A stretch of DNA of 64,000 bases from a virus (IMGVR_UViG_3300045988_003641:1-64000), one strand, 5' to 3'. Numbered from the stretch's first letter, positions 1-24,436 are shown. A program made the numbers and translations. Notes: a model not told the origin generated them from the letters alone.

Positions 1-63
1 GCAGAAGACGGCATACGAGATGTAGCTCCGTCTCGTGGGCTCGGAGATGTGTATAAGAGACAG
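1..63. other. Illumina Nextera-type sequencing adapter (P7 flow-cell segment + 8-nt index GTAGCTCC + transposase mosaic end); not biological
   Basis: Matches GCAGAAGACGGCATACGAGAT-[index]-GTCTCGTGGGCTCGGAGATGTGTATAAGAGACAG from memory of the Nextera i7 adapter. Confidence 0.9.
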
Positions 64-188
64 CCCCAAAAGTCAAGAGAAAAATTTGTAGCGGATTGAA
101 AAATAATTCTTGATTTGCGTTCTGTTTTGTGGTAGTCGTGCGCACCCGTTTCATTACAGTTTTGCCAAAAATATTTTTAAAATTTTTA

Positions 189-248
189 TTGACTCTTTGA
201 ACGTGGTTATCTAATATTTACATCAACGGGGAGGGAATGACCTTCCCC
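189..248 (+). promoter_or_regulatory. Early cassette type A: sigma70-like promoter (TTGACT-17-TAATAT) + GGGGAGGG/CCTTCCCC hairpin + conserved leader
   Basis: -35 at 189-194, 17-nt spacer, -10 at 212-217; hairpin 228-248; leader CACTAAATAAA..CCTAAACTGGAGATTCAAAAATG. Confidence 0.7.
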
Positions 249-280
249 ACTAAATAAAATCCTAAACTGGAGATTCAAAA

Positions 281-469
281 ATGGCATCAAGAAAAATTAA
301 AGTTGGCGATGAGGTTAACATTAAGCACGAATACTCTTACAAAATGCTAACTATACGCTCTTATAAGGTTTATCAGGTGGAAGCTATCCACAAAGATAAT
401 ACTTTTTCCTTAAAAGGGTATAGCGAACGTTTCCCTGCTGAACTCTTTGAGAAATGGAGCGTGAAATAA
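281..469 (+). CDS. hypothetical early protein
   Basis: ORF 62 aa behind cassette leader/RBS GGAGATTCAAAAATG. Confidence 0.6.
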   Translation: MASRKIKVGDEVNIKHEYSYKMLTIRSYKVYQVEAIHKDNTFSLKGYSERFPAELFEKWSVK

Positions 470-675
470 TGCTTTACAGTCGTGAATTGATGGTTACAAC
501 TAACGTTAACACAAATGCAAAACGTTTTTACATGCAAATTTGTGGCGTATGGTCTAGAATATCAGAAGCTGACTATTGCAACTATGTAGAAACAGCTATA
601 AACTCTAATTGCTACCTTACAAGAAATACTAAAAAATTTACGAGACAGACAGCAATTTACTACTACGATAAATAA
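469..675 (+). CDS. hypothetical early protein
   Basis: ORF; start probably ATG 469 overlapping upstream stop (TAATG), GGAG 9 nt upstream; track start 454. Confidence 0.5.
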   Translation: MLYSRELMVTTNVNTNAKRFYMQICGVWSRISEADYCNYVETAINSNCYLTRNTKKFTRQTAIYYYDK

Positions 676-682
676 AAAGTAC

Positions 683-718
683 TTTACAAGGGGCTTATAG
701 TTCGATAAAGTAAGCCCC
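683..718 (+). promoter_or_regulatory. Early cassette type B: TTTACA-17-TAAAGT promoter-like element with GGGGCTTA/TAAGCCCC hairpin
   Basis: Recurring about 50-bp element; 8-bp stem; no T-tract so not a simple terminator. Confidence 0.55.
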
Positions 719-765
719 AGATAAAGAGCTTTACCAAATTAACCCTTAAACTAGGAGATTCAAAA

Positions 766-1149
766 ATGGCATATCGTGCACCTAAATTCATCAACAAAGA
801 CAACTTTCGCAACACACTGGAGAAGTCACTTGATGAAAATTTTAAAGGTAACATTATCGTTGTTCACGCATTCAATTTTAAGTATGATGTAAACGGGAAT
901 AGAATCAACCATTACACGGCAACCATGTTAGATGGTACACTTTCAAGTGAAAAAGCCGTACTAAATGCACTGGCAGGACGTGGAAAGGTATTAGTAAGAT
1001 GTGATAAGAGACGTTATCAGGGCGGTGCATATGGTTATGATGATGCTGTTTACCATCTTGAAAATATGGGCTATCAAGTAGAAAAAGCTGGAGCATCACA
1101 AATCATCGGCAGTGATGGTTATGTAACTATCTTCAAAATTAACAAATAA
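766..1149 (+). CDS. hypothetical early protein
   Basis: ORF 127 aa behind cassette leader. Confidence 0.6.
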   Translation: MAYRAPKFINKDNFRNTLEKSLDENFKGNIIVVHAFNFKYDVNGNRINHYTATMLDGTLSSEKAVLNALAGRGKVLVRCDKRRYQGGAYGYDDAVYHLENMGYQVEKAGASQIIGSDGYVTIFKINK

Positions 1150-1154
1150 AGTAC

Positions 1155-1190
1155 TTTACAAGGGGCTTATAGTTCGATAAAGTAAGCCCC
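1155..1190 (+). promoter_or_regulatory. Early cassette type B
   Basis: Near-identical copy of the 683-718 element. Confidence 0.55.
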
Positions 1191-1220
1191 AGATAAAAAG
1201 CTTTACTACTCAATCCTAAA

Positions 1221-1529
1221 TTGGAGAACTTAAAAATGGCTATTATCAAAAACGTTGTAATTACTGCAAAGACTCGTGATGACGCTCGCGTTATGGCTAA
1301 AAAGTTATGCGGTAAAGTGGTTGACAACGGAAAACAATCTGCTGTAAGGTGGGGTGTGAAGGTTGATAAACAGTTGAAGTTAAAAAATTCACCGATAAAC
1401 CTTTTTACATGTGTAAACACTATCGGGAAGACAAATGTATACACGAAAAAGGCATACATTAGACGCGTAGCATTAACATCCCCCATTCGTACAATGAGAA
1501 GTTATGCAAAGCTGAAAATTAACAAATAA
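1221..1529 (+). CDS. hypothetical early protein
   Basis: ORF 102 aa behind cassette leader. Confidence 0.6.
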   Translation: MENLKMAIIKNVVITAKTRDDARVMAKKLCGKVVDNGKQSAVRWGVKVDKQLKLKNSPINLFTCVNTIGKTNVYTKKAYIRRVALTSPIRTMRSYAKLKINK

Positions 1530-1534
1530 AGTAC

Positions 1535-1570
1535 TTTACAGGGGGCTTAAAAGCTGATACCTTAAGCCCC
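1535..1570 (+). promoter_or_regulatory. Early cassette type B (variant stem GGGGCTTAA/TTAAGCCCC)
   Basis: Covarying stem, same flanks. Confidence 0.5.
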
Positions 1571-1614
1571 AGATAAAGAGCTTTACCACTAAATCCTAAA
1601 CTGGAGATTCAAAA

Positions 1615-2127
1615 ATGAAAACTGTAGACGCTACCTTTGAAGTTGTAAAAGAAAAATTCACTATTATTTATGAAGCTGTCAATTGCTTTGAAGCAAGCCA
1701 TAATCTTGATAATTGGGAATTTACAGATGACCATCAAGGCGGTGTGACGATTAAAAATCCTAACTGTCAGCGTAATGAATTTAAATATGCAATCCCTTTA
1801 CATTACAGCCTTAAACAGCTTTCAAGTGACTATGCAAAACAAGGCCGGGCAAATCCATCAAAAGAGGCTTACATCAGCTTACAGAAAGAACTAGAAAGAG
1901 ATTTAGAGGCTTCAGAATATAACATTGCCGCGAAAGTTGTAGATGCAAATGGCAGCACTGTTTTAGAAAGTTTTTATATTGGTTACGCTTTCGATTGGTG
2001 CTACAGTGACGGCGATGATTTAGAGGATAGACTAAAAGAAGAGGTGAACAACGCAGACGCAGAATCTGAAGTATTAGAACGTTTGGAATCGTTGAAAGAC
2101 TCAGTGATGAATATCTTTAAGAACTAA
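1615..2127 (+). CDS. hypothetical early protein (acidic C-terminus)
   Basis: ORF 170 aa behind cassette leader. Confidence 0.6.
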   Translation: MKTVDATFEVVKEKFTIIYEAVNCFEASHNLDNWEFTDDHQGGVTIKNPNCQRNEFKYAIPLHYSLKQLSSDYAKQGRANPSKEAYISLQKELERDLEASEYNIAAKVVDANGSTVLESFYIGYAFDWCYSDGDDLEDRLKEEVNNADAESEVLERLESLKDSVMNIFKN

Positions 2128-2136
2128 ATAGATTCC

Positions 2137-2170
2137 TTTACACGGGGTTATCAAGCTGGTAGGATAGCCC
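2137..2170 (+). promoter_or_regulatory. Early cassette type B (variant)
   Basis: TTTACA + GGGGTTATC/GATAGCCCC hairpin + AGATAAAGAG flank. Confidence 0.45.
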
Positions 2171-2219
2171 CAGATAAAGAGATTTATCAAATAAAGCCCT
2201 TAAACTAGGAGATTCTAAA

Positions 2220-2516
2220 ATGAAATTATCAAATAAAGTCCGTGAAAATTTAAGCAAGTTACTTAATAAAATTGATTTCATTGAAACATCAAGAAATAGT
2301 CATGATGTTATGGAATGGTTACACGGAAAAATCAAAGGCCGTCGTGTAGTGATTTGCTTATGGAACAGTTGCAGGGAGTATAAAAAACCTGTATTGCAAG
2401 TCAATATTTATGATGATACTTTTAAAAGTCCTGTAAAATCTAAAAGCGATTTATTAGAATCCTATGAGATAACTGTAAATGGCAAAGTATCACGTAAAGA
2501 GGAAACACCATGTTAA
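2220..2516 (+). CDS. hypothetical early protein
   Basis: ORF 98 aa behind cassette leader. Confidence 0.6.
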   Translation: MKLSNKVRENLSKLLNKIDFIETSRNSHDVMEWLHGKIKGRRVVICLWNSCREYKKPVLQVNIYDDTFKSPVKSKSDLLESYEITVNGKVSRKEETPC

Positions 2517-2842
2517 TGACTGGTATCACTGCAATCATTGCCATTTTCGCTCTATATAAGGCATATAAAGCCTATAATCTAGCAAATAAGGCAACCACCC
2601 AGCAGGTTAGCAATAGCCTTGTAGAAAGCTTTCTAGGGCGTTTAAGTGATGAGCAAATAAAGCGGCTAGAGATGAGCTTCAGATATAAAGCGAAAACCTA
2701 TCAGATAAGTGACATCTTCAAAGATAATTTTCAGTTAGTGGATGATTATAATTCTCTGATAAATGCTTTAAATGTCAGTGACTTAAAAGACTACTACGCT
2801 GTAATTGTTCAAGAATTGAGCAAACGAAAACAAAACTGTTGA
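2510..2842 (+). CDS. hypothetical early protein, N-terminal hydrophobic segment
   Basis: ORF 110 aa, start overlaps upstream stop (ATGTTAATG); likely TM helix ITAIIAIFALY. Confidence 0.55.
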   Translation: MLMTGITAIIAIFALYKAYKAYNLANKATTQQVSNSLVESFLGRLSDEQIKRLEMSFRYKAKTYQISDIFKDNFQLVDDYNSLINALNVSDLKDYYAVIVQELSKRKQNC

Positions 2843-2898
2843 CACTGGTTTTTAGATAGATTAAATTACACATCAACGGGGAGGGAATGACCTTCCCC
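2839..2898 (+). promoter_or_regulatory. Early cassette type A (TTGACA-17-TAAATT + hairpin)
   Basis: -35 2839-2844, -10 2862-2867, hairpin 2878-2898. Confidence 0.7.
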
Positions 2899-2932
2899 AC
2901 TAAATAAAGCCCTTAAACTAGGAGATTCAAAA

Positions 2933-3091
2933 ATGTTTTGTGCAGGTGATAAAGTTGTCTGGAATGATATAGATGACGGTTTATGTACGAAAGTTGTTGT
3001 TATCTTAGAAATTGATTATATCACTGGTGTTGCAACTGTAGCAGATAATGATATAATCTTTGATGTCTTAATTAGTGAACTGTCAAAATAA
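2933..3091 (+). CDS. small hypothetical early protein (52 aa), not in supplied ORF track
   Basis: ATG directly behind cassette leader CTAGGAGATTCAAAAATG; 52 sense codons to TAA. Confidence 0.5.
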   Translation: MFCAGDKVVWNDIDDGLCTKVVVILEIDYITGVATVADNDIIFDVLISELSK

Positions 3092-3117
3092 AATCCTTAA
3101 ACTAGGAGATTCTGAAA

Positions 3118-3390
3118 ATGTATACTACTAACAACGGTCGCACTTTAAACGTAACCCTGCGTCACTATGTGAATGGTGTGATGCACTTTGATGATTTACA
3201 AGCTGAGCAACACATCTTAAATTGGCAAGTTGCAGGACTCCAAAAAACTGCTACAGGATACGGGAAAAAGATTCCAACCAGTTGGAAAGTATACTACGCA
3301 GGACGTTTACGCAGAATTTATCAAGATGTGCAAAGCAATAGCGCATCGAGTTACATTATAGTAAAAGGCAAAAAACTGCATTTAATGTAA
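3118..3390 (+). CDS. hypothetical early protein
   Basis: ORF 90 aa behind leader CTAGGAGATTCTGAAAATG. Confidence 0.6.
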   Translation: MYTTNNGRTLNVTLRHYVNGVMHFDDLQAEQHILNWQVAGLQKTATGYGKKIPTSWKVYYAGRLRRIYQDVQSNSASSYIIVKGKKLHLM

Positions 3391-3395
3391 AGTAC

Positions 3396-3430
3396 TTTAC
3401 AAGGGGCTTATAGTTCGATAAAGTAAGCCC
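3396..3430 (+). promoter_or_regulatory. Early cassette type B
   Basis: Copy of the 683-718 element. Confidence 0.55.
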
Positions 3431-3461
3431 CAGATAAAGAGCTTTACTACTCAATCCTAAA

Positions 3462-3881
3462 TTGGAGAACTTAAAAATGGCTATTAATAACCGTGAATTA
3501 TCAATTTTAAAAGCACGTTTGACCGTTAACCGGATTAATGTTATCACGTCATCAGCACCAGATGAAACACTACAAAACATTATTGGGAAGATTCAAAGTG
3601 TTATCTTAGACGTTGAAAGCGTAAAAAACTCATTGACTGACGTTGCAGCAGGTATCACGCTAGATGGTGCACAACATGAAATGGCCGACATGTTAGGCAA
3701 ATCTAAGGTAATGAATAAAGAGTTAGATTTGAAAATGTTCCGATTTGCTGTTAAAGTGTGGTTATCTGTCGAGTATGATGCTAACTTTGCAATCGCTGAC
3801 TTTTTCGCCACTTGGTTGCAGCGTAATTTGGCAAATCACGATTTCCGTAATATCTGCGATGCAATTTATGCAGAACTATAA
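3462..3881 (+). CDS. hypothetical early protein
   Basis: ORF 139 aa behind cassette leader. Confidence 0.6.
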   Translation: MENLKMAINNRELSILKARLTVNRINVITSSAPDETLQNIIGKIQSVILDVESVKNSLTDVAAGITLDGAQHEMADMLGKSKVMNKELDLKMFRFAVKVWLSVEYDANFAIADFFATWLQRNLANHDFRNICDAIYAEL

Positions 3882-3891
3882 AAAATTTTTG

Positions 3892-3951
3892 TTGACACTG
3901 GTTTTTAGATAGATTAAATTACACATCAACGGGGAGGGAATGACCTTCCCC
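3892..3951 (+). promoter_or_regulatory. Early cassette type A
   Basis: TTGACA 3892-3897, TAAATT 3915-3920, hairpin 3931-3951. Confidence 0.7.
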
Positions 3952-3984
3952 ACTAAATAAAGTCCTAAACTGGAGATTCAAAAA

Positions 3985-4188
3985 ATGGCTATTATTAATG
4001 GTTTAACCATTGAAACTACACACATCAAAGATATCAAAGTTGGTGATATAGTCCTTTCCCACGGCGTAGAAAAAACTGTCACTGCAAAGGATATCAAAGA
4101 GGATTCTTTCATGGGTAGGACTCTCTTCGGTGATTCTTATTGCTTAGGCTATCTTGCAGTTTTAAAAGTTGTCAAAAATAACAAATAA
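3985..4188 (+). CDS. hypothetical early protein
   Basis: ORF 67 aa behind cassette leader. Confidence 0.55.
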   Translation: MAIINGLTIETTHIKDIKVGDIVLSHGVEKTVTAKDIKEDSFMGRTLFGDSYCLGYLAVLKVVKNNK

Positions 4189-4193
4189 AGTAC

Positions 4194-4229
4194 TTTACAA
4201 GGGGCTTAAAAGTTGATAACTTAAGCCCC
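4194..4229 (+). promoter_or_regulatory. Early cassette type B (variant stem)
   Basis: GGGGCTTAA/TTAAGCCCC hairpin with conserved flanks. Confidence 0.5.
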
Positions 4230-4274
4230 AGATAAAGAACTTTACCACTAAATCCTAAACTGGAGATTCTAAAA

Positions 4275-4451
4275 ATGATGAACTACTTTAACATTCCCGA
4301 TACCTGTAGATTATTGACACAAGAAGAAAATTTGGGTAAACCTTTCATTTACCACATGCCAGATAACACGGCAAAAACTTATAGTTACAATGTTAACCGT
4401 TTCACCGCATACGCTGCAAAGAACGGCTATAGGTTGGTTACTCAAAAGTAA
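4275..4451 (+). CDS. small hypothetical early protein (58 aa), not in supplied ORF track
   Basis: ATG behind leader CTGGAGATTCTAAAAATG; open to TAA at 4449-4451. Confidence 0.5.
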   Translation: MMNYFNIPDTCRLLTQEENLGKPFIYHMPDNTAKTYSYNVNRFTAYAAKNGYRLVTQK

Positions 4452-4527
4452 TGCTGGTTACAACTGCTGGCGAGATTCCTACAGTTGCAGTCAAACTAGT
4501 TTTCTCAAAGAAAGTTAAATAAAGCAC

Positions 4528-4562
4528 TTTACAAGGGGTTTATAGTTCGATAAAGTAAGCCC
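4528..4562 (+). promoter_or_regulatory. Early cassette type B
   Basis: GGGGTTTA/TAAGCCCC hairpin with conserved flanks. Confidence 0.5.
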
Positions 4563-4609
4563 CAGATAAAGAGCTTTACCACTCAATCCTTAAACTAGGA
4601 GATTCAAAA

Positions 4610-5152
4610 ATGAAATGTTATCACGGAACTACTCAAGAAAATTTCCTCAACCTGATTAATAACGGTGATAAACCATCAGGCGCATGGAATTGTTCGGATA
4701 TGGACGGCAATTTTTACGTGTATCCAGAAAATAAAATCTATGGCGACGATGATGAAGAGATAACATCGGAGGGCATTCAGCAAGCTCTAGGGAACGCCAC
4801 TATTACGGCGGCCTTCCAGATGAAAACCCAAAATATTGTTATCTTAGAACTCGATATTCCAGATGATGAGCTAAATGATGATTATTCTTGTGATAATATG
4901 TCGAGTGTAGCAAGTTTTACAGAGTACTTTGATGTAAACTGGATTAAAAAGGTCTATACAACAGAGTTTAACGCTATGTATTCGCCTTTTTGTCTTCCTT
5001 CACTGGATAACCCAAATATGAACTATCTTGATGAGACATTAGAACTACTTGCTAAAAGTGTTCAACAGTCGGACAGTATTCAGGTTTTTTGTGACATCAT
5101 AGATACACTGACAGGAAACATTGCAGAAGAGGATTTAAAGAGCTTTTTCTAA
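4610..5152 (+). CDS. hypothetical early protein (acidic)
   Basis: ORF 180 aa behind cassette leader. Confidence 0.6.
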   Translation: MKCYHGTTQENFLNLINNGDKPSGAWNCSDMDGNFYVYPENKIYGDDDEEITSEGIQQALGNATITAAFQMKTQNIVILELDIPDDELNDDYSCDNMSSVASFTEYFDVNWIKKVYTTEFNAMYSPFCLPSLDNPNMNYLDETLELLAKSVQQSDSIQVFCDIIDTLTGNIAEEDLKSFF

Positions 5153-5185
5153 AAACCTATGCAATCACCTTATAAACACTAATCA

Positions 5186-5204
5186 GCCCCTTGTAGGGGC
5201 TTTT
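5186..5204 (+). terminator. putative rho-independent terminator
   Basis: GCCCCT-tgt-AGGGGC hairpin followed by TTTT. Confidence 0.5.
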
Positions 5205-5218
5205 AGAGGGCTTAAATC

Positions 5219-5452
5219 ATGCTTACAACCATTTATCTCATCCTCTCAATTTGTAATGGCCATTCATGTGACTTTAAAGGGCTTGAAGAGTTTACAGGAA
5301 GTAAAGAAAATGCTATTCAAGTTTGCCAGATAGCAAGGCAAGACTATCCCGCCAGTGATGATATACAATGTTACTTTAAGACAGAAGATGACGACGGAAT
5401 CTATTTCGACAGTGTTGACGGTCAATATGAAATTATCATTGAAAAAGACTAG
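5219..5452 (+). CDS. hypothetical early protein
   Basis: ORF 77 aa with AGAGGG RBS. Confidence 0.5.
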   Translation: MLTTIYLILSICNGHSCDFKGLEEFTGSKENAIQVCQIARQDYPASDDIQCYFKTEDDDGIYFDSVDGQYEIIIEKD

Positions 5453-5509
5453 ACAAGCCTGATAAAAGTCTGTAAATTGTCAATCAACGGGGAGGGAATG
5501 ACCTTCCCC
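5450..5509 (+). promoter_or_regulatory. Early cassette type A (TAGACA-17-TAAATT + hairpin); promoter overlaps 3' end of upstream CDS
   Basis: -10 5473-5478, hairpin 5489-5509. Confidence 0.6.
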
Positions 5510-5543
5510 ACTAAATAAAACCCTTAAACTAGGAGATTCAAAA

Positions 5544-5885
5544 ATGGCTTATGTAACCGTAATTACCGATAAAGCTGGCGCATCTTGGTCAACTCAAGTA
5601 AGTGATAAGATGTCACCTATGCAGTGCCTAAAATACTTTGAACAGTGGAACAAAGGCGAGGACACAAGCCCCTTTCAAGTGATGCAGATTATCCATGTAG
5701 ATAACGAAGGGAATAAAACGGTTTTAAATAGTGAATACTACGCAAGCCGTTTTGAAACGAGAAGTAAAACAATGAAGCTTTTACGTGAATCCGGTTATGC
5801 CCATATCGCCGCGTTAATCTGGGATGACCTGCTAAAAAGTCAGCGTATCAGCTATGTAAAGCCTGAAAAAATATTCATCAGTTAA
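5544..5885 (+). CDS. hypothetical early protein
   Basis: ORF 113 aa behind cassette leader. Confidence 0.6.
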   Translation: MAYVTVITDKAGASWSTQVSDKMSPMQCLKYFEQWNKGEDTSPFQVMQIIHVDNEGNKTVLNSEYYASRFETRSKTMKLLRESGYAHIAALIWDDLLKSQRISYVKPEKIFIS

Positions 5886-5917
5886 TCAATAACTTACAAA
5901 AAACTTTTAAAAAAGTG

Positions 5918-5946
5918 TTGACAATACCCCTTGACATTGGTAACTT
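5918..5946 (+). promoter_or_regulatory. sigma70-like promoter with tandem TTGACA boxes
   Basis: AAAAAGTGTTGACA...TTGACA; -35 5918-5923, 17-nt spacer, -10 TAACTT 5941-5946. Confidence 0.45.
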
Positions 5947-6014
5947 TGTTCGAGGGGGCTTATCTAAAAGGGATTCACTTAAAAGATTCTTTATAGATAA
6001 GCTCAAAAAATTAC

Positions 6015-6073
6015 TTGCAATCAACTATCAAAACAAGTAAATTACTAATCAACGGGAAGGCAATAACCTCCCC
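6015..6073 (+). promoter_or_regulatory. Early cassette type A variant (TTGCAA-17-TAAATT + GGGAAGG/CCTCCCC hairpin)
   Basis: Covarying hairpin arms, same leader. Confidence 0.6.
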
Positions 6074-6105
6074 ACTAAATAAAGTCCTAAACTGGAGATT
6101 CTAAA

Positions 6106-6636
6106 ATGAACAAATTTCAAGCTATCAACTTCATTCGTTCAAATGCTGTAATGTCTAAGCCTGTAAAAGATACATACGAATTCCGTTGTAATGGGGTACA
6201 TTTCGCAACAATCACCAAATCAGAAAACGGGGCTTATTACGTTCATCGTCGTAATGTTTCCACTGTTGTAGTCTCTCACTTTATGCAAGCTGTAGCGGAA
6301 TTATTACCGTTATTCTTAGAGATTTACTTAGATGAGTGTAAAAACGTTCACAACCACGTTAAAAACCTTTTAAACGGTTATAAAATGGCTTATGAACGTT
6401 CTATCAAGTCCTTAAACAAGTTCTATAAAGCCCCTGAAAACTCTGTTGCTTCAGCCTATGGCGTAGGCGGTTGGACTGTTAGTCTCTTCGAAGTGGAAGA
6501 AATCGAGCTTTACGACCATCGACCTAACGGTTACTCTAAGACTCTCGGTGAAGGTTTAACGTTCAATATCAAGAACTTAGAAAAAACTTTAAAAGATATT
6601 GAAAAAGATATTGACGAGACAATAAAAAGTCTGTAA
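6106..6636 (+). CDS. hypothetical early protein
   Basis: ORF 176 aa behind cassette leader. Confidence 0.6.
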   Translation: MNKFQAINFIRSNAVMSKPVKDTYEFRCNGVHFATITKSENGAYYVHRRNVSTVVVSHFMQAVAELLPLFLEIYLDECKNVHNHVKNLLNGYKMAYERSIKSLNKFYKAPENSVASAYGVGGWTVSLFEVEEIELYDHRPNGYSKTLGEGLTFNIKNLEKTLKDIEKDIDETIKSL

Positions 6637-6670
6637 ATTGTCAATCAACGGGGAGGGAATGACCTTCCCC
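6611..6670 (+). promoter_or_regulatory. Early cassette type A (TTGACG-17-TAAATT + hairpin); overlaps 3' end of upstream CDS
   Basis: -35 6611-6616, -10 6634-6639, hairpin 6650-6670. Confidence 0.65.
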
Positions 6671-6702
6671 ACTAAATAAAGTCCTAAACTGGAGTTATCA
6701 AG

Positions 6703-6966
6703 ATGGAAAACGTAGAATTAACCACACTTTTACAAATTGCAACTGACAAAGAAGATGTAGCACTGTTTCACCGTATCGAAAGCGATTTATTCAATGGTGA
6801 AATCATCAAAGAGTCTTACGAAGTTGTCGGATTCAAAGATGGTAAAGCGTTTGGCTTTTTTGACCTCGACAAAGGCAACGCTGTCACAAAGTATGATGTC
6901 GTATCTTGTGAGATTCTTACAAAATACAACGAAAAAAGGCTTGCAACATACGCCAATATGCAGTAA
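6703..6966 (+). CDS. hypothetical early protein
   Basis: ORF 87 aa behind cassette leader. Confidence 0.6.
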   Translation: MENVELTTLLQIATDKEDVALFHRIESDLFNGEIIKESYEVVGFKDGKAFGFFDLDKGNAVTKYDVVSCEILTKYNEKRLATYANMQ

Positions 6967-6997
6967 ATTACTAATCAACGGGAGGCGATAACCTCCC
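6941..6997 (+). promoter_or_regulatory. Early cassette type A variant (TTGCAA-17-TAAATT + GGGAGG/CCTCCC hairpin)
   Basis: -35 6941-6946, -10 6964-6969, hairpin 6980-6997. Confidence 0.6.
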
Positions 6998-7032
6998 TAC
7001 TAAATAAAACCCTTAAACTAGGAGATTCAAAA

Positions 7033-7281
7033 ATGGCAACTATCCGCGCTACTGTCAATGCCTATGGCTGTTATACTCTGGACGTTAAATTCGATATTGG
7101 TGGAACTGATGAGTGTTTTTCATTAGTGAAGACAGTTATCAAACAAGTTATTCCAGATTATAACCCTACTGATGACTTCTGGAAAGATGCTGTAAAAGAG
7201 GCATTAAACGACGAGCATCACTATCATTACTGGGGTGACTTGATTGTTTCCCTGTACTACAATAAACAAGGTTACAACTAA
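7033..7281 (+). CDS. hypothetical early protein
   Basis: ORF 82 aa behind cassette leader; last gene of plus-strand early block. Confidence 0.6.
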   Translation: MATIRATVNAYGCYTLDVKFDIGGTDECFSLVKTVIKQVIPDYNPTDDFWKDAVKEALNDEHHYHYWGDLIVSLYYNKQGYN

Positions 7282-7320
7282 TCGACGCAACGGGGCTAAA
7301 TAGCCCCAGATACCTGAACA

Positions 7321-7370
7321 GCCCCTATTTAGTATGGATTCGATAGAATCTATCTCATAGGGGCTTTTTT
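7321..7370 (+). terminator. rho-independent terminator closing the early plus-strand block
   Basis: GCCCCTAT...ATAGGGGC stem followed by TTTTTT. Confidence 0.6.
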
Positions 7371-8963
7371 ACGTCTATCGAATCCTTATACAATCTCTTT
7401 CCATCACCTTTCCAGAATCTATCTCATACCTTAAAAGCAATAACTCTATAGTCTACTCTATAACCTCTTATCAAATCAACTTAAATAAAAGCCCATAACC
7501 CGAAAGGGAAGGGCAACCGTTTAAACGCTCTATAAAGCTCTATAACAGCCTTATCAACCTAACTTAAGGGATTGCATTAACTCACCCTTAAAAGCTCTTT
7601 ACAGGGCTTTATAGAGGCTTAAAAGAATCTTATAAGGGTGTAAGCTTTATTACCTCGTTAGCTATCTTGTGAACTACTAAAAAGGGCTTGTTAGTGTCTT
7701 AAAAGTATGTTATAGGGGCTTAAAAGTTACGTAAAAGAGGCTATAAAGTTACGTAAATACTAGCCCCCTTAACATTTTCTTAACATTTTCTTAACAATTT
7801 CTTAACAATCCCTACATAGTTATTCTTTTAAGGCACTTGTTAGCAACTTGTTAGCACCTTGTTAAATCTCTGTTAATACCACGTAAAAGCCTTGTAAGAG
7901 TCTTTGACATAGCCTTAAAAGCTCCTGTAAAGCCCTATAAAGAGTTATCTGTACAGTTGGGGTGTAACTACTAGGAAGAGACTTAAAAGAGCTTATAAAG
8001 AGCTATAGAGAGCTTTTAAGAGGTATGTTTAGAGAATCACTAAGAAAGGAAAGGAACGATAAGGAAGAAGTAGTGACCATGTTAACAGCTTGTTAAAAAG
8101 ATTAAATACTTGTTAGAAACTTGTTAATTATCTTAACAAGATAACTCTTAAAAATTAACTTGTTAGCTCTTGTTAGTCATCTGTTAAGATTCTGTAAAGC
8201 CTATGTATCAACTGTTAAGAAACTGTTAAGCCCTTGTTAGTTCTGTTAAGAATCTGTTAAGACCTTTGAAGAGTTGTTAAGAGCTTGAGAGAGCTGTTAA
8301 GAGATTGTTAAGGATATTTTAAAATTTTGCAAAGTACTTGTAAGGGAGCTGTTAAGGGCTACCAAGCAGATATACATCTTCTACAGATATTTTTCAGTTC
8401 CTTCAAAGACCCTAAAAAATGACTTGATAGTCCTATTTTATAAAAATTTTAAAATTCTGAATAATTACCTAGACAGTCTTTTAAAAATACAGGTAATAAC
8501 AGGCTTATAAGATACCTTGTTAGTACCGTGTTAGACCTTGTGAGATAAGGTCTGTAAAGATATTCCTGTTAAGTTTGTTAAAACAGTCTATATAGAGGCT
8601 TAGTAATACCTAGTGAACACCTATAGAGGGTATCATAGGTAACATAGGGATTAAGAGGTGTATAGGAGCTTCTAAGAGGGTATAGAGAGATGGTTAAGGT
8701 GATTGTATAGGTTGTTTAGAAGGCTTGTTAGAAGAGTGTTTAGAAGGGCTATTTAGAAGGGTTATACAGAGGGCTATTAAGACCACTAGATAGTTACTAA
8801 GATACTATATAGTACTATATAACTATATAGAGAGTAAGATTAAGAAGGTTGTTAAGAAGGATAGATATTTTATTCACATATGATGGTGACCAAGAGGTTG
8901 GGACAACCGATAAAATTTTATAAAAATTAAAAAGCCCCCAATTAAGGAGGCTCTTAAGATATT
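7371..8963. repeat. 1.6 kb ORF-free tract with dense short repeats: 30 or more TGTTA(A/G) copies in both orientations, plus TTAGAAGG x4, ACTATATA x3, AAGTTACGTAAA x2
   Basis: No ORF of 60 aa or more on either strand; motif spacing 10-12 bp in the 8100-8360 core. Confidence 0.7.
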
Positions 8964-24265: not shown

Positions 24266-24357
24266 GAAGATTAACCCTAAAAGGTAAGGGAGCAGTTTGC
24301 TAAACTGCCAGTAGCTGAGAAATCGGTGTACCAGTTCAAGTCTGGTATCTTCCTCCA
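24266..24357 (+). tRNA. tRNA-Ser (anticodon GCU), class II
   Basis: 92 nt; acceptor GGAAGAT/ATCTTCC, stem GCAGT/ACTGC, loop TTGCTAA. Confidence 0.6.
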
Positions 24358-24361
24358 ATTT

Positions 24362-24436
24362 GAATCCGTGACAGAAATGGCTATGTGCCTGTCTGCAAAA
24401 CAGGTTTATAAGGGTTCGAGTCCCTTCGGATTCTCC
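24362..24436 (+). tRNA. tRNA-Cys (anticodon GCA)
   Basis: Acceptor GAATCCG/CGGATTC, stem CCTGT/ACAGG, loop CTGCAAA. Confidence 0.6.

Follow-up and report, generated by a model that had tools for sequence, protein, structure and literature searches.

Repeated promoter-hairpin-leader units as probable sites of single-gene shuffling in a Felixounavirus genome

The 64,000-nt viral DNA analyzed here (the window) comes from a Felixounavirus of the subfamily Ounavirinae; it is 98% identical to Escherichia phage ASO1A, and 259 Ounavirinae records match it. Between positions 189 and 7281, 18 small genes are interspersed with recurring promoter-like sequences and hairpins, which raises the question of whether these repeats are expression signals only or also the means by which the genes were gained and lost. 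Promoter-early stem-loop (PeSL) cassettes have been described in the T4-like phages RB49/phi1, T4/PST, and KVP40/nt-1 (Arbiol 2010, PMC2839356; Comeau 2014, PMC4122927). We proposed that 189-7372 is probably a hyperplastic early-gene region in which promoter-hairpin-leader units shuffle single genes by the PeSL mechanism, with each unit comprising a putative promoter of the host sigma-70 type, a G+C-rich + strand stem-loop, and an unstructured leader that the units share.

Units and genes of the region

Exact pattern searches retrieved seven type A and seven type B units in 189-7281, all on the + strand, and none on either strand in the rest of the 64 kb, which bears out the counts of the preliminary description; the chance expectation, from 100 dinucleotide shuffles, was 0. 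No unit was present in 7.4-64 kb of the window or in the other 24 kb of ASO1A, and the unit-bearing region, one per genome, spans ~7 kb. The promoter spacer was exactly 17 nt in 14/14 units, as had been claimed for both types, and each hairpin tested folded, with a dG of -8 to -15.2 kcal/mol and z of -2.1 to -4.9, in agreement with the hairpins first proposed.

Each type A unit opens with its -35, followed by 17 nt, TAAWWT, 4 nt, and ATCAACGGG, and resembles a sigma-70 promoter with a hairpin beginning 10 nt past the -10. Unit A1 (189-280; -35 TTGACT 189-194, -10 TAATAT 212-217, hairpin 228-248, leader up to the ATG at 281) precedes g1 (281-469, 62 aa, phrog_15633). The -10 of the other six is TAAATT. 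A2 (2839-2932; -35 TTGACA, -10 2862-2867, hairpin 2878-2898) precedes g8 (2933-3091, 52 aa, matching neither PHROGs nor Pfam), A3 (3892-3984; TTGACA, -10 3915-3920, hairpin 3931-3951) precedes g11 (3985-4188, 67 aa, phrog_3623), and A4 (5450-5543; TAGACA, -10 5473-5478, hairpin 5489-5509) precedes g15 (5544-5885, 113 aa, phrog_4318). A5 (6015-6105; TTGCAA, -10 6038-6043), with the weakest hairpin (6054-6073, dG -8), lies ahead of g16 (6106-6636, 176 aa, phrog_4725), whose TAA stop forms bases 1-3 of the -10 of A6 (6611-6702; TTGACG, -10 6634-6639, hairpin 6650-6670). The latter precedes g17 (6703-6966, 87 aa, phrog_7022), which ends within the -10 of A7 (6941-7032; TTGCAA, -10 6964-6969, hairpin 6980-6998), the unit of g18 (7033-7281, 82 aa, phrog_4559).

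Type B units follow the pattern TTTACA, N, GGGG..., with a 17-nt spacer and TAnnnT, so that the hairpin is embedded within the spacer and -10; they begin with AAATTAACAAATAAAGTAC. Unit B1 (683-765; -35 TTTACA 683-688, -10 TAAAGT 706-711, hairpin 690-718, leader up to the ATG at 766) precedes g3 (766-1149, 127 aa, phrog_4495). B2 (1155-1235; TAAAGT 1178-1183, hairpin 1162-1190) precedes g4 (1236-1529, 97 aa, phrog_5089), and B3 (1535-1614; TACCTT 1558-1563, hairpin 1542-1570) precedes g5 (1615-2127, 170 aa, phrog_4190), which also has homologs outside Ounavirinae. B4 (2137-2219; TAGGAT 2160-2165), whose hairpin (2144-2171, GGGGTTATC/GATAGCCCC) is compensatory with respect to B1, serves g6 (2220-2516, 98 aa, phrog_4401), and B5 (3396-3476; TAAAGT 3419-3424, hairpin 3403-3431) serves g10 (3477-3881, 134 aa, phrog_4327). 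B6 (4194-4274; TAACTT 4217-4222, hairpin 4201-4229) is followed by g12 (4275-4451, 58 aa), a truncated member of an 82-aa family, and B7 (4528-4609; TAAAGT 4551-4556, hairpin 4535-4563 with U.G at stem position 5) by g13 (4610-5152, 180 aa, no Pfam match). The modeled fold of g13 appears ADP-ribosyltransferase-like, and its homolog Bas63 gp107 is discussed in PMC11482910.

One unit per small gene had been proposed; this holds for 14 of the 18 ORFs, all on the + strand, and fails for g2, g7, g9, and g14. Two of these are translationally coupled to the preceding gene: the start of g2 (469-675, 68 aa) overlaps the g1 stop (TAATG), and g7 (2510-2842, 110 aa) starts within the 3' end of g6 and terminates with a TGA within the A2 -35. 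Ahead of g9 (3118-3390, 90 aa, phrog_3436) lies a leader (CCTTAAACTAGGAGATTCTGAAA, 3092-3117, + strand) without promoter or hairpin. The fourth, g14 (5219-5452, 77 aa), has its own RBS, which differs from the unit leader, is preceded by a terminator-like hairpin, and ends with a TAG within the A4 -35. The 18 proteins had been called uncharacterized, correctly: none matched Pfam, and all PHROGs matched are of unknown function. The Bas63 screen indicates only indirectly that these ORFs are non-essential.

The leader, described as the same for all units, proved common in its core, CCT(T)AAAYT(A)GGAG, present in 15 copies, all on the + strand within 261-7024, with GGAG 8 nt upstream of the ATG in 15/15. 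The form CACTAAATAAA was exact in type A only, and type B variants include CCACTAAATCC and CTACTCAATCC.

Three further + strand features accompany the units. An additional promoter-like site without an ORF (5925-6004; TTGACA-17-TAACTT at 5925-5953 and a 49-nt hairpin at 5956-6004, dG -20.6, z -4.6) is conserved in Michonne. The only canonical-looking terminators in the region are the hairpin ahead of g14 (5183-5209, AGCCCCTTGTAGGGGCT then TTTT), which is not a cassette, is annotated as a terminator in wV8, and was called by the terminator scan in its - strand version, and a strong intrinsic terminator at 7320-7372 (GCCCCTAT...ATAGGGGC then TTTTTT), which closes the region and is annotated as such in ASO1A and as t23 in Felix O1.

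Conservation of predicted promoters and hairpins

We examined whether the hairpins might be terminators or insulators only, the type B "promoter" being a conserved flank and type B genes being read through from type A promoters. In support of this, type A hairpins are annotated as rho-independent terminators in ASO1A (WebGeSTer) and XTG1, PeSL stem-loops lowered lacZ expression in T4-like phages (PMC2839356), and the type B -10 hexamers are weak. However, no T-run follows any unit hairpin, none was called by the terminator scan, and the type A and type B hairpins are followed by ACTAAATAAA and AGATAAAGAG, respectively, which do not provide the U-run of an intrinsic terminator. Moreover, a terminator 10 nt past the -10 of a promoter would abort the transcript of that promoter.

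The promoter elements were themselves conserved. Among 59 type A variants the critical promoter positions were conserved. The upstream context of these units took six unrelated forms, of which four were the 3' ends of coding sequences, and each offered, exactly 17 nt from TAAATT, a hexamer that agrees with TTGACA in 4-6 of its 6 bases; we estimated a chance of ~0.04 per context. The type B signature set comprised 45 distinct variants from three genera, in which the -35 was TTTACA (42/45) or TTGCAA (3/45), the 17-nt spacing held in 44/45, and the -10 retained T1 (42/45), A2 (45/45), and T6 (45/45) with positions 3-5 variable. Because T1 and A2 sit in the unpaired loop, the hairpin cannot explain their invariance; a purely terminating function likewise accounts for neither the constant TTTACA nor the spacing of 17 nt nor these loop bases. 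Two observations run against promoter function in type B: some -10 hexamers (TACCTT, TAGGAT) match TATAAT poorly, and a stable hairpin spanning the -10 could impede initiation instead of promoting it.

Covariation of the arms, attributed in the preliminary description to type A, was instead well supported for type B. All 59 type A variants still fold, and their arms differ mostly through indels or slippage within runs of G and C, which makes alignment-based covariation uninformative; that it was not demonstrable by alignment in type A counts against our reading. In contrast, the 17 distinct type B arm pairs from Ounavirinae had 147/153 stem cells paired, compared with 121 +/- 4.6 after permutation of the arms, and none of 5000 permutations reached 147; changes on both sides occurred at stem positions 3, 5, 7, and 8. 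G.U pairs outnumbered A.C (14 vs 2), and only 135 cells paired on the minus strand, which points to a + strand structure, with the asymmetry fitting + strand single-stranded DNA and RNA equally.

These data also bear on the idea that duplex or extruded DNA is the form in which the inverted repeats function, as binding sites for a phage protein (a repressor, nuclease, or recombinase) or as hairpin-type promoter elements. The type B repeat overlaps the -10 as operators typically do, a recombination protein binding the stem-loops was speculated on by the PeSL authors (PMC2839356), and G.T pairs are tolerated in single-stranded DNA too. Nevertheless, arm sequences vary while pairing is kept, which favors structure over sequence recognition, and the better pairing of the + strand would not arise from a symmetric duplex site. 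We regard action as DNA sites as quite improbable, including the cases in which a repressor shuts off the early promoters or the units are actively mobilized by a structure-specific nuclease or recombinase.

Published endpoint RT-PCR of Felix O1 bears on the term "early". The homologs of g5, g10, g15, and g16 were maximal at 5 min, in line with the term; those of g6, g9, and g18 peaked at 25 min despite the units, which departs from it and from our reading. Felix O1 genes 16 and 20, which lie behind type B units, were maximal at 5 min, contrary to what a terminator-only function predicts, and we consider that function unlikely. The searchable literature yielded no 5'- or 3'-end mapping for Ounavirinae phages.

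If the units are promoters, as we infer, a type A transcript from the predicted start (~A225 in A1) would carry its hairpin 2-4 nt from the 5' end, a position that suggests a role as 5' stabilizer; for RNA arriving from upstream the same hairpin would form a 3' structure. As the type B hairpin spans the spacer and -10, it is present only in RNA read through from upstream, where it would likely serve as a 3'-end barrier or attenuator insulating the units, and transcription from the unit itself would begin directly after the hairpin (~A719/G720 in B1).

Gene exchange among relatives

Alignment of the cassettes across related phages, named beforehand as a check on the proposed shuffling, revealed differences of cassette plus gene with chimeric junctions. 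Thirteen relatives had 13 distinct gene contents: g1 and g2 were both missing from EcoM2, VpaE1_ev78, LMP33, and Ro111lw; g3 from ASO1A; g8 from LMP33, XTG1, Felix O1, Ro111lw, and Seyj1-1; and g17 from Felix O1, NBEco004, and Seyj1-1. In 9/9 indel classes examined, the junction lay inside units or leader and left a single seamless chimera of normal unit length, which follows one parental unit on the left and the other on the right and switches between them within a stretch of identity. Crossover points were scattered over the -10, hairpin, leader, and SD-ATG interval; the loss of g17 had three, at the -10 in Felix O1, in the hairpin-leader interval in NBEco004, and at the leader CCT in Seyj1-1. 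This spread, with no single fixed site, is a further point against recognition of the repeats as DNA sites. In addition, the hairpin class, or the choice of A or B, differed between genomes at g3, g9, g10, g12, g13, and g15, and within the window B2 and B5 are 99% identical across 99 nt and A2 and A3 98% identical, with unrelated genes downstream.

Could the repeats be kept only as strong expression signals, with the indels being illegitimate recombination events that survived between genes? About 19% of the region, almost the whole of its intergenic space, is occupied by cassettes, and breakpoints within them are therefore partly expected from selection for intact genes. Against this explanation, all junctions are seamless single units of normal length with the parental switch within identity, paralogous units are near-identical even at non-functional loop positions, and hairpin classes were exchanged between orthologous positions. 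We judged it very improbable that expression alone maintains the repeats.

Thus, the comparisons suggest that relatives gained, lost, and swapped single genes via recombination within the unit repeats. The units are near-identical repeats of 60-100 nt that end in one leader, and as such are homology patches for general recombination, which was probably of the ordinary homologous kind and may have involved co-infecting relatives or units within one genome; single genes would be deleted, inserted, or swapped, each already carrying its expression signals. The cassettes, called mobile at first, appear so in the sense of recombination at repeats and not of autonomous mobility. A bolder proposal, to which we give little credence, is that a structure-specific phage or host factor acts on the hairpins, in RNA or extruded + strand DNA, and drives excision and insertion of gene-plus-cassette circles, with type B as a silencing switch. 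If true, it would imply an integron-like, recombinase-independent gene capture common to unrelated lytic phage lineages, and a type B hairpin that silences its own promoter when transcribed through from upstream.

Comparison with known systems

The units resemble lambdoid morons in equipping single accessory genes of a variable region with expression signals. Morons, flanked by their own promoter and terminator, have no conserved flanking repeat, and their insertion is thought to be illegitimate recombination, whereas the flanks here are the repeated homology. Stem-loops at the 5' end stabilize certain mRNAs, such as that of E. coli ompA through its 5' UTR, and the type A hairpin, stable and predicted ~2-4 nt from the transcript 5' end, is similar; its function is deduced from position, and the same hairpin also occurs in read-through RNA. 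Integron gene cassettes likewise form arrays of single, promoter-dependent genes with repeated recombination sites at their borders; here, each unit has its own promoter, and there is no integrase or attC-type site, exchange apparently being general homologous recombination.

A PeSL cassette opens with an AT-rich stretch that contains the upstream stop codon and closes with an SD and ATG; its other parts are a sigma-70-like N17 promoter and a GGGG...CCCC stem-loop, which either overlaps the -10 or follows shortly after it (PMC2839356). The T4/PST promoter consensus is TTTACW-N17-TAYWAT (PMC4122927). PeSL are further characterized by promoter strength and by terminator or attenuator activity of the stem-loop in reporter assays, and by mini-circles of cassette plus gene that form during infection. 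The likeness extends to every PeSL feature that sequence can reveal: a predicted sigma-70-like promoter in all 14 units, stem-loops over the spacer and -10 (type B) or past the -10 (type A), the AT-rich start with upstream stop and the 3' SD with ATG, clustering among small ORFans in a hyperplastic region, and unit-bounded indels or replacements with chimeric junction cassettes and crossovers between the -10 and ATG. The PeSL-like modular shuffling first proposed is thereby supported, as it is by the confinement of the units to one region of small unannotated ORFs. The two systems differ in layout, with several regions and five positional subclasses in T4-likes compared with only two sharply defined architectures in one region per genome here. 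They also differ in that one leader is common to both types and that the -35 and spacer of type A fall within the 3' coding end of the gene before them. PeSL occur in T4-like myoviruses and these units in the unrelated Ounavirinae, which separates the two by lineage but not by mechanism, and single-gene shuffling via promoter-hairpin repeats had previously been reported for T4-like phages only.

Setting and anatomy of the repeated units

Window bases 60-7400 matched 259 phage records, all of them Felix O1-like myoviruses (Ounavirinae), with Escherichia phage vB_EcoM_ASO1A as the top match at 98% identity. Only 4 of the 259 records covered at least 80% of this query in one place, which indicated that the region is highly mosaic inside an otherwise conserved genus. 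In ASO1A, it follows rIIA, rIIB, the spanin genes and a macro-domain gene, and a strong terminator stands at its end. The phage sequence begins at ~63, 125 nt upstream of the first unit's promoter; positions 1-62 are an Illumina Nextera P7 adapter (GCAGAAGACGGCATACGAGAT, index, GTCTCGTGGGCTCGGAGATGTGTATAAGAGACAG) at the contig start, that is, assembly contamination.

Exact pattern searches of the 64 kb identified seven type A units, seven type B units and 15 cores of the leader, the ribosome-binding segment ending at ATG that both types share. All mapped to the + strand within 189-7032, and the spacer was exactly 17 nt in every unit, in agreement with the preliminary description. No further copy of the units or the leader core was found in the rest of the 64 kb, none in 100 dinucleotide shuffles, and no unit in the 24 kb of ASO1A that lie outside the window's coverage. 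The unit hairpins folded as proposed (dG -8 to -15.2 kcal/mol, z -2.1 to -4.9), and none of them was followed by a T-run. A generic promoter/terminator scan was non-discriminating in this AT-rich DNA (45 promoter-like sites vs 29 expected) and recovered only 10 of the 14 units.

Type A units (A1-A7) consist of a -35 element (TTGACA, TTGACT, TTGACG, TTGCAA or TAGACA), 17 nt, TAAATT or TAATAT, 10 nt ending in ATCAAC, the hairpin, ACTAAATAAA and the leader. With a predicted start 6-9 nt past the -10, the hairpin would lie 2-4 nt from the transcript 5' end. Commonly, the -35 and spacer overlap the 3' part of the preceding coding sequence: TTGACA contains the TGA stop of g7 and TAGACA the TAG stop of g14, and the TAA of TAAATT serves as the stop of g16 and again of g17. 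Six unrelated upstream contexts still provide a 4-6 of 6 match to TTGACA exactly 17 nt away, each with an estimated chance of ~0.04. Type B units (B1-B7) begin with the 3'-terminal codons of the preceding gene (AAC AAA TAA), followed by AGTAC, TTTACA, 17 nt and TAnnnT; their hairpin spans spacer base 2 through 7 nt beyond the -10, after which come AGATAAAGAGCTTTACC and the leader. Since the predicted start is just 3' of this hairpin, it can form only in RNA coming from upstream. The leader occurs as two alleles, CCTAAAYTGGAG (8 copies) and CCTTAAACTAGGAG (7 copies), and each is found behind both unit types, suggesting that the units are themselves mosaics.

The proposal of one unit per small gene held for 14 of the 18 ORFs (g1-g18). 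It failed for g2 and g7, each of which overlaps the preceding gene, for g9, which has a leader alone, and for g14, which lies downstream of a canonical-looking terminator (5183-5209) and has a different ribosome-binding site; none of the four has its own unit.

Several other elements were observed in or near the region. At 5925-6004, a promoter-like TTGACA-17-TAACTT is followed by a 49-nt hairpin (dG -20.6, z -4.6) and no ORF; this element is kept in the Mooglevirus Michonne (locus L011, 10377-10573), has no Rfam match and is a candidate for either a structured leader or a small RNA. At 7290-7306, directly before the terminal terminator, GGGGCTAAATAGCCCC followed by AGATA forms a type-B-like hairpin and tail with neither promoter nor gene, and may be a cassette remnant. 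Beyond it, a 1.5-kb non-coding gap (7400-8930) separates convergent transcription units and is full of TGTTAAG/CTTAACA motifs in both orientations with a 10-11-bp phase, together with CTTAAAAG/TATAAAG repeats. Its layout resembles an iteron-type array for protein binding, perhaps serving origin or packaging functions, and many public assemblies are opened within the matching gap. Outside the window, TTTTTCATTTTCAAnnTGTGCA(G/T) occurs four times at intervals of ~45-60 nt (L011, 3958-4300; L013, 4410-4640), immediately ahead of the early region and upstream of its first unit, and is kept between Mooglevirus and Kolesnikvirus. Rfam gave no match in 1-9 kb of the window, its only matches being 25 tRNA genes on the + strand at 18.9-24.4 kb (18871-24434).

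Conservation of promoter positions and stem pairing

We compared the region with that of 13 other Felixounaviruses, two Moogleviruses and two Kolesnikviruses. In this alignment of the cassettes across related phages, the unit architecture was found in all three genera and the promoter positions were conserved. Among 45 distinct type B variants, the -35 was TTTACA in 42 and TTGCAA in 3, and the spacer was 17 nt in 44. In the -10, T1 was kept in 42/45, and A2 and T6 in 45/45 each; positions 3-5 were variable (TATCTT, TAAGAT, TAAAGT, TAGTAT, TACCTT, TAGGAT and others). As T1 and A2 lie in the unpaired loop, their invariance is explained only by selection on the promoter. This signature agrees with the consensus TTTACW-N17-TAYWAT of the promoter-early stem-loop (PeSL) cassettes of T4 and PST (PMC4122927).

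The type B stem is maintained by compensatory change. Position 3 switches from G-C to U-A in Kolesnikvirus (GGTG...CACC), position 5 is C-G, U.G or U-A, and positions 7 and 8 alternate between U-A and A-U. Over 17 distinct arm pairs, 147 of the 153 cells were paired, compared with 121 +/- 4.6 when the 3' arms were permuted, and 147 was reached in 0/5000 permutations. We used this outside-in register count because RNAalifold returned only 6 pairs for type B, owing to gap placement. G.U exceeded A.C (14 vs 2), and the complementary strand paired only 135 cells; the better + strand pairing and the G.U excess indicated that selection acts on the + strand structure, in RNA or perhaps in single-stranded DNA. 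The hairpin (dG -5.7 to -15.6) is kept at a constant distance from the -10 in all 59 type A variants, which likewise show G.U, at stem position 6. Covariation analysis of type A with RNAalifold was uninformative, as the alignment slips in G/C runs and the arms change by slippage.

Gene content and chimeric junctions

Gene order was kept, and the 13 genomes had 13 distinct gene contents; every module seen among the compared genomes was present in the window. We aligned the junctions for nine indel classes, and each junction was a single chimeric unit of normal length. Where g1-g2 are missing (EcoM2, VpaE1_ev78, LMP33 and Ro111lw), A1 runs to GGAGATTCAAAAATGGCAT and then into g3; where g3 is missing (ASO1A), B1 runs to CTTTACC and continues as the B2 leader. 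The absence of g8 in LMP33, XTG1, Felix O1 and Ro111lw corresponds to a crossover between two leader copies, and by gene content g8 is also missing in Seyj1-1. B6 and B7 join in the SD-ATG segment where g12 is missing (finno, Seyj1-1 and NBEco004), A3 and B7 in the leader where g11-g12 are missing (Ro111lw), A3 and A4 in the leader where g11-g14 are missing (Felix O1), and A5 and A6 in the hairpin or leader where g16 is missing (VpaE1_ev78). Loss of g17 shows three different crossover points, in the -10 (Felix O1), between hairpin and leader (NBEco004) and in the leader CCT (Seyj1-1). In the ninth class, an additional 48-aa gene between g14 and g15 of Seyj1-1 carries its own A unit.

The units and leader make up ~19% of the region, and viable breakpoints would fall in the units also from selection for intact genes. 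However, exchange driven by homology is favoured by the seamless switches inside identical stretches and by the three independent ways in which g17 was lost. Two further observations support it. Within the window, paralogous units share 98-99% identity, loop positions included, despite serving unrelated genes. The units upstream of g3, g9, g10, g12, g13 and g15 differ between genomes in hairpin or -10 class, or even in being type A in one genus and type B in another. In Citrobacter phage Michonne (L011, 5485-5656), two type B units stand in tandem, the ATG of the first leader being fused to the next CTTTACA; this "empty" cassette resembles a scar left when an entire gene was deleted. We rejected VpaE1_ev78 and VpaE1_ev035 as laboratory-evolved VpaE1 descendants recording shuffling in real time, since they are only 84-96% identical to VpaE1 and a search for their provenance gave no result.

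The 18 proteins were uncharacterized, as previously noted: 0/18 reached the Pfam threshold, and all PHROG matches were of "unknown function". Homologs of g5 occur in Vequintavirinae and Casjensviridae phages; a fold search with g5 was uninformative, and neither g5 nor g13 had a sequence match in the PDB. The modelled fold of g13 resembles that of ADP-ribosyltransferases, and g13 is a putative enzyme of this kind. In the window, g12 (4275-4522) ends after 58 aa, compared with 82 aa in its family and 81 aa in the ASO1A homolog, and the remainder lies in another frame (4451-4522), reflecting either a frameshift/pseudogene or a sequencing error. This 18-gene accessory pool supplies candidates for host-takeover or anti-defence screens.

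Proposed working and comparison with PeSL cassettes

We infer that transcription by the host RNA polymerase would begin at each unit shortly after infection. In Felix O1, RT-PCR placed the peak of the g5, g10, g15 and g16 homologs at 5 min and that of the g6, g9 and g18 homologs at 25 min, the gene numbers being mapped via the repeat positions given in the Felix O1 paper. The hairpins may mark transcript boundaries. In type A, the hairpin would form a 5' stem-loop on the unit's own mRNA; 5' stem-loops shield mRNA from 5'-end-dependent decay. In both types, it would form a 3' stem-loop on RNA from upstream, and could attenuate read-through or hinder exonucleases. In lacZ assays, PeSL stem-loops from RB49 and phi1 acted like this (PMC2839356). 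The common leader would give uniform strong translation starts and could provide the homology for recombination between A and B units.

Our literature search found no description of PeSL or stem-loops in Felix O1-like phages and no transcription start data for them. A 57-bp and a 39-bp "direct repeat" listed without interpretation in the Felix O1 paper correspond to the type B and type A sequences; the wV8 record marks the repeats as DR_1 to DR_9, and the wV8 paper nowhere mentions them. The ASO1A record annotates some type A promoters and labels type A hairpins as terminators. Our analysis corrects public annotation, in which type A hairpins appear as terminators, type B promoters are unmarked and the repeats are merely "direct repeats". 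The phages concerned are much used; among them are Felix O1, Bas63 from BASEL and numerous isolates for therapy and biocontrol. For engineering of Felixounaviruses the units offer defined, naturally tolerated insertion points and ready-made, predicted expression units.

Related layouts were observed elsewhere. In the Seunavirus GEC_vB_MG (Vequintavirinae; L017, 1345-1443), TTGACG-17-TACTAT precedes a g5 homolog, with a GGGCG..CGCCC hairpin 11 nt later, a type-A-like arrangement; a Providencia phage (L018, 1370-1443 and 2175-2248) carries a repeated hairpin unit of its own between genes. Units that combine promoter and hairpin may thus be widespread in early regions.

PeSL units are defined by five properties: a promoter, a stem-loop, a hyperplastic location, association with indels, and an AT-rich 5' portion combined with a 3' end that bears SD and ATG (PMC2839356, PMC4122927). 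At the sequence level, the window units show all five; they differ in lineage, being carried by Ounavirinae and not by T4-like phages. The PeSL-like modular shuffling proposed in the preliminary description is thus supported by the anatomy, the conserved promoter positions and pairing, and the chimeric junctions. Taken together, the units fit the known PeSL kind and are not a new mechanism, a solid result that is expected in kind. With them, PeSL-type modular shuffling reaches beyond the T4-like phages to a second, unrelated subfamily. This suggests that lytic phages in general use promoter-hairpin repeats to exchange accessory early genes.
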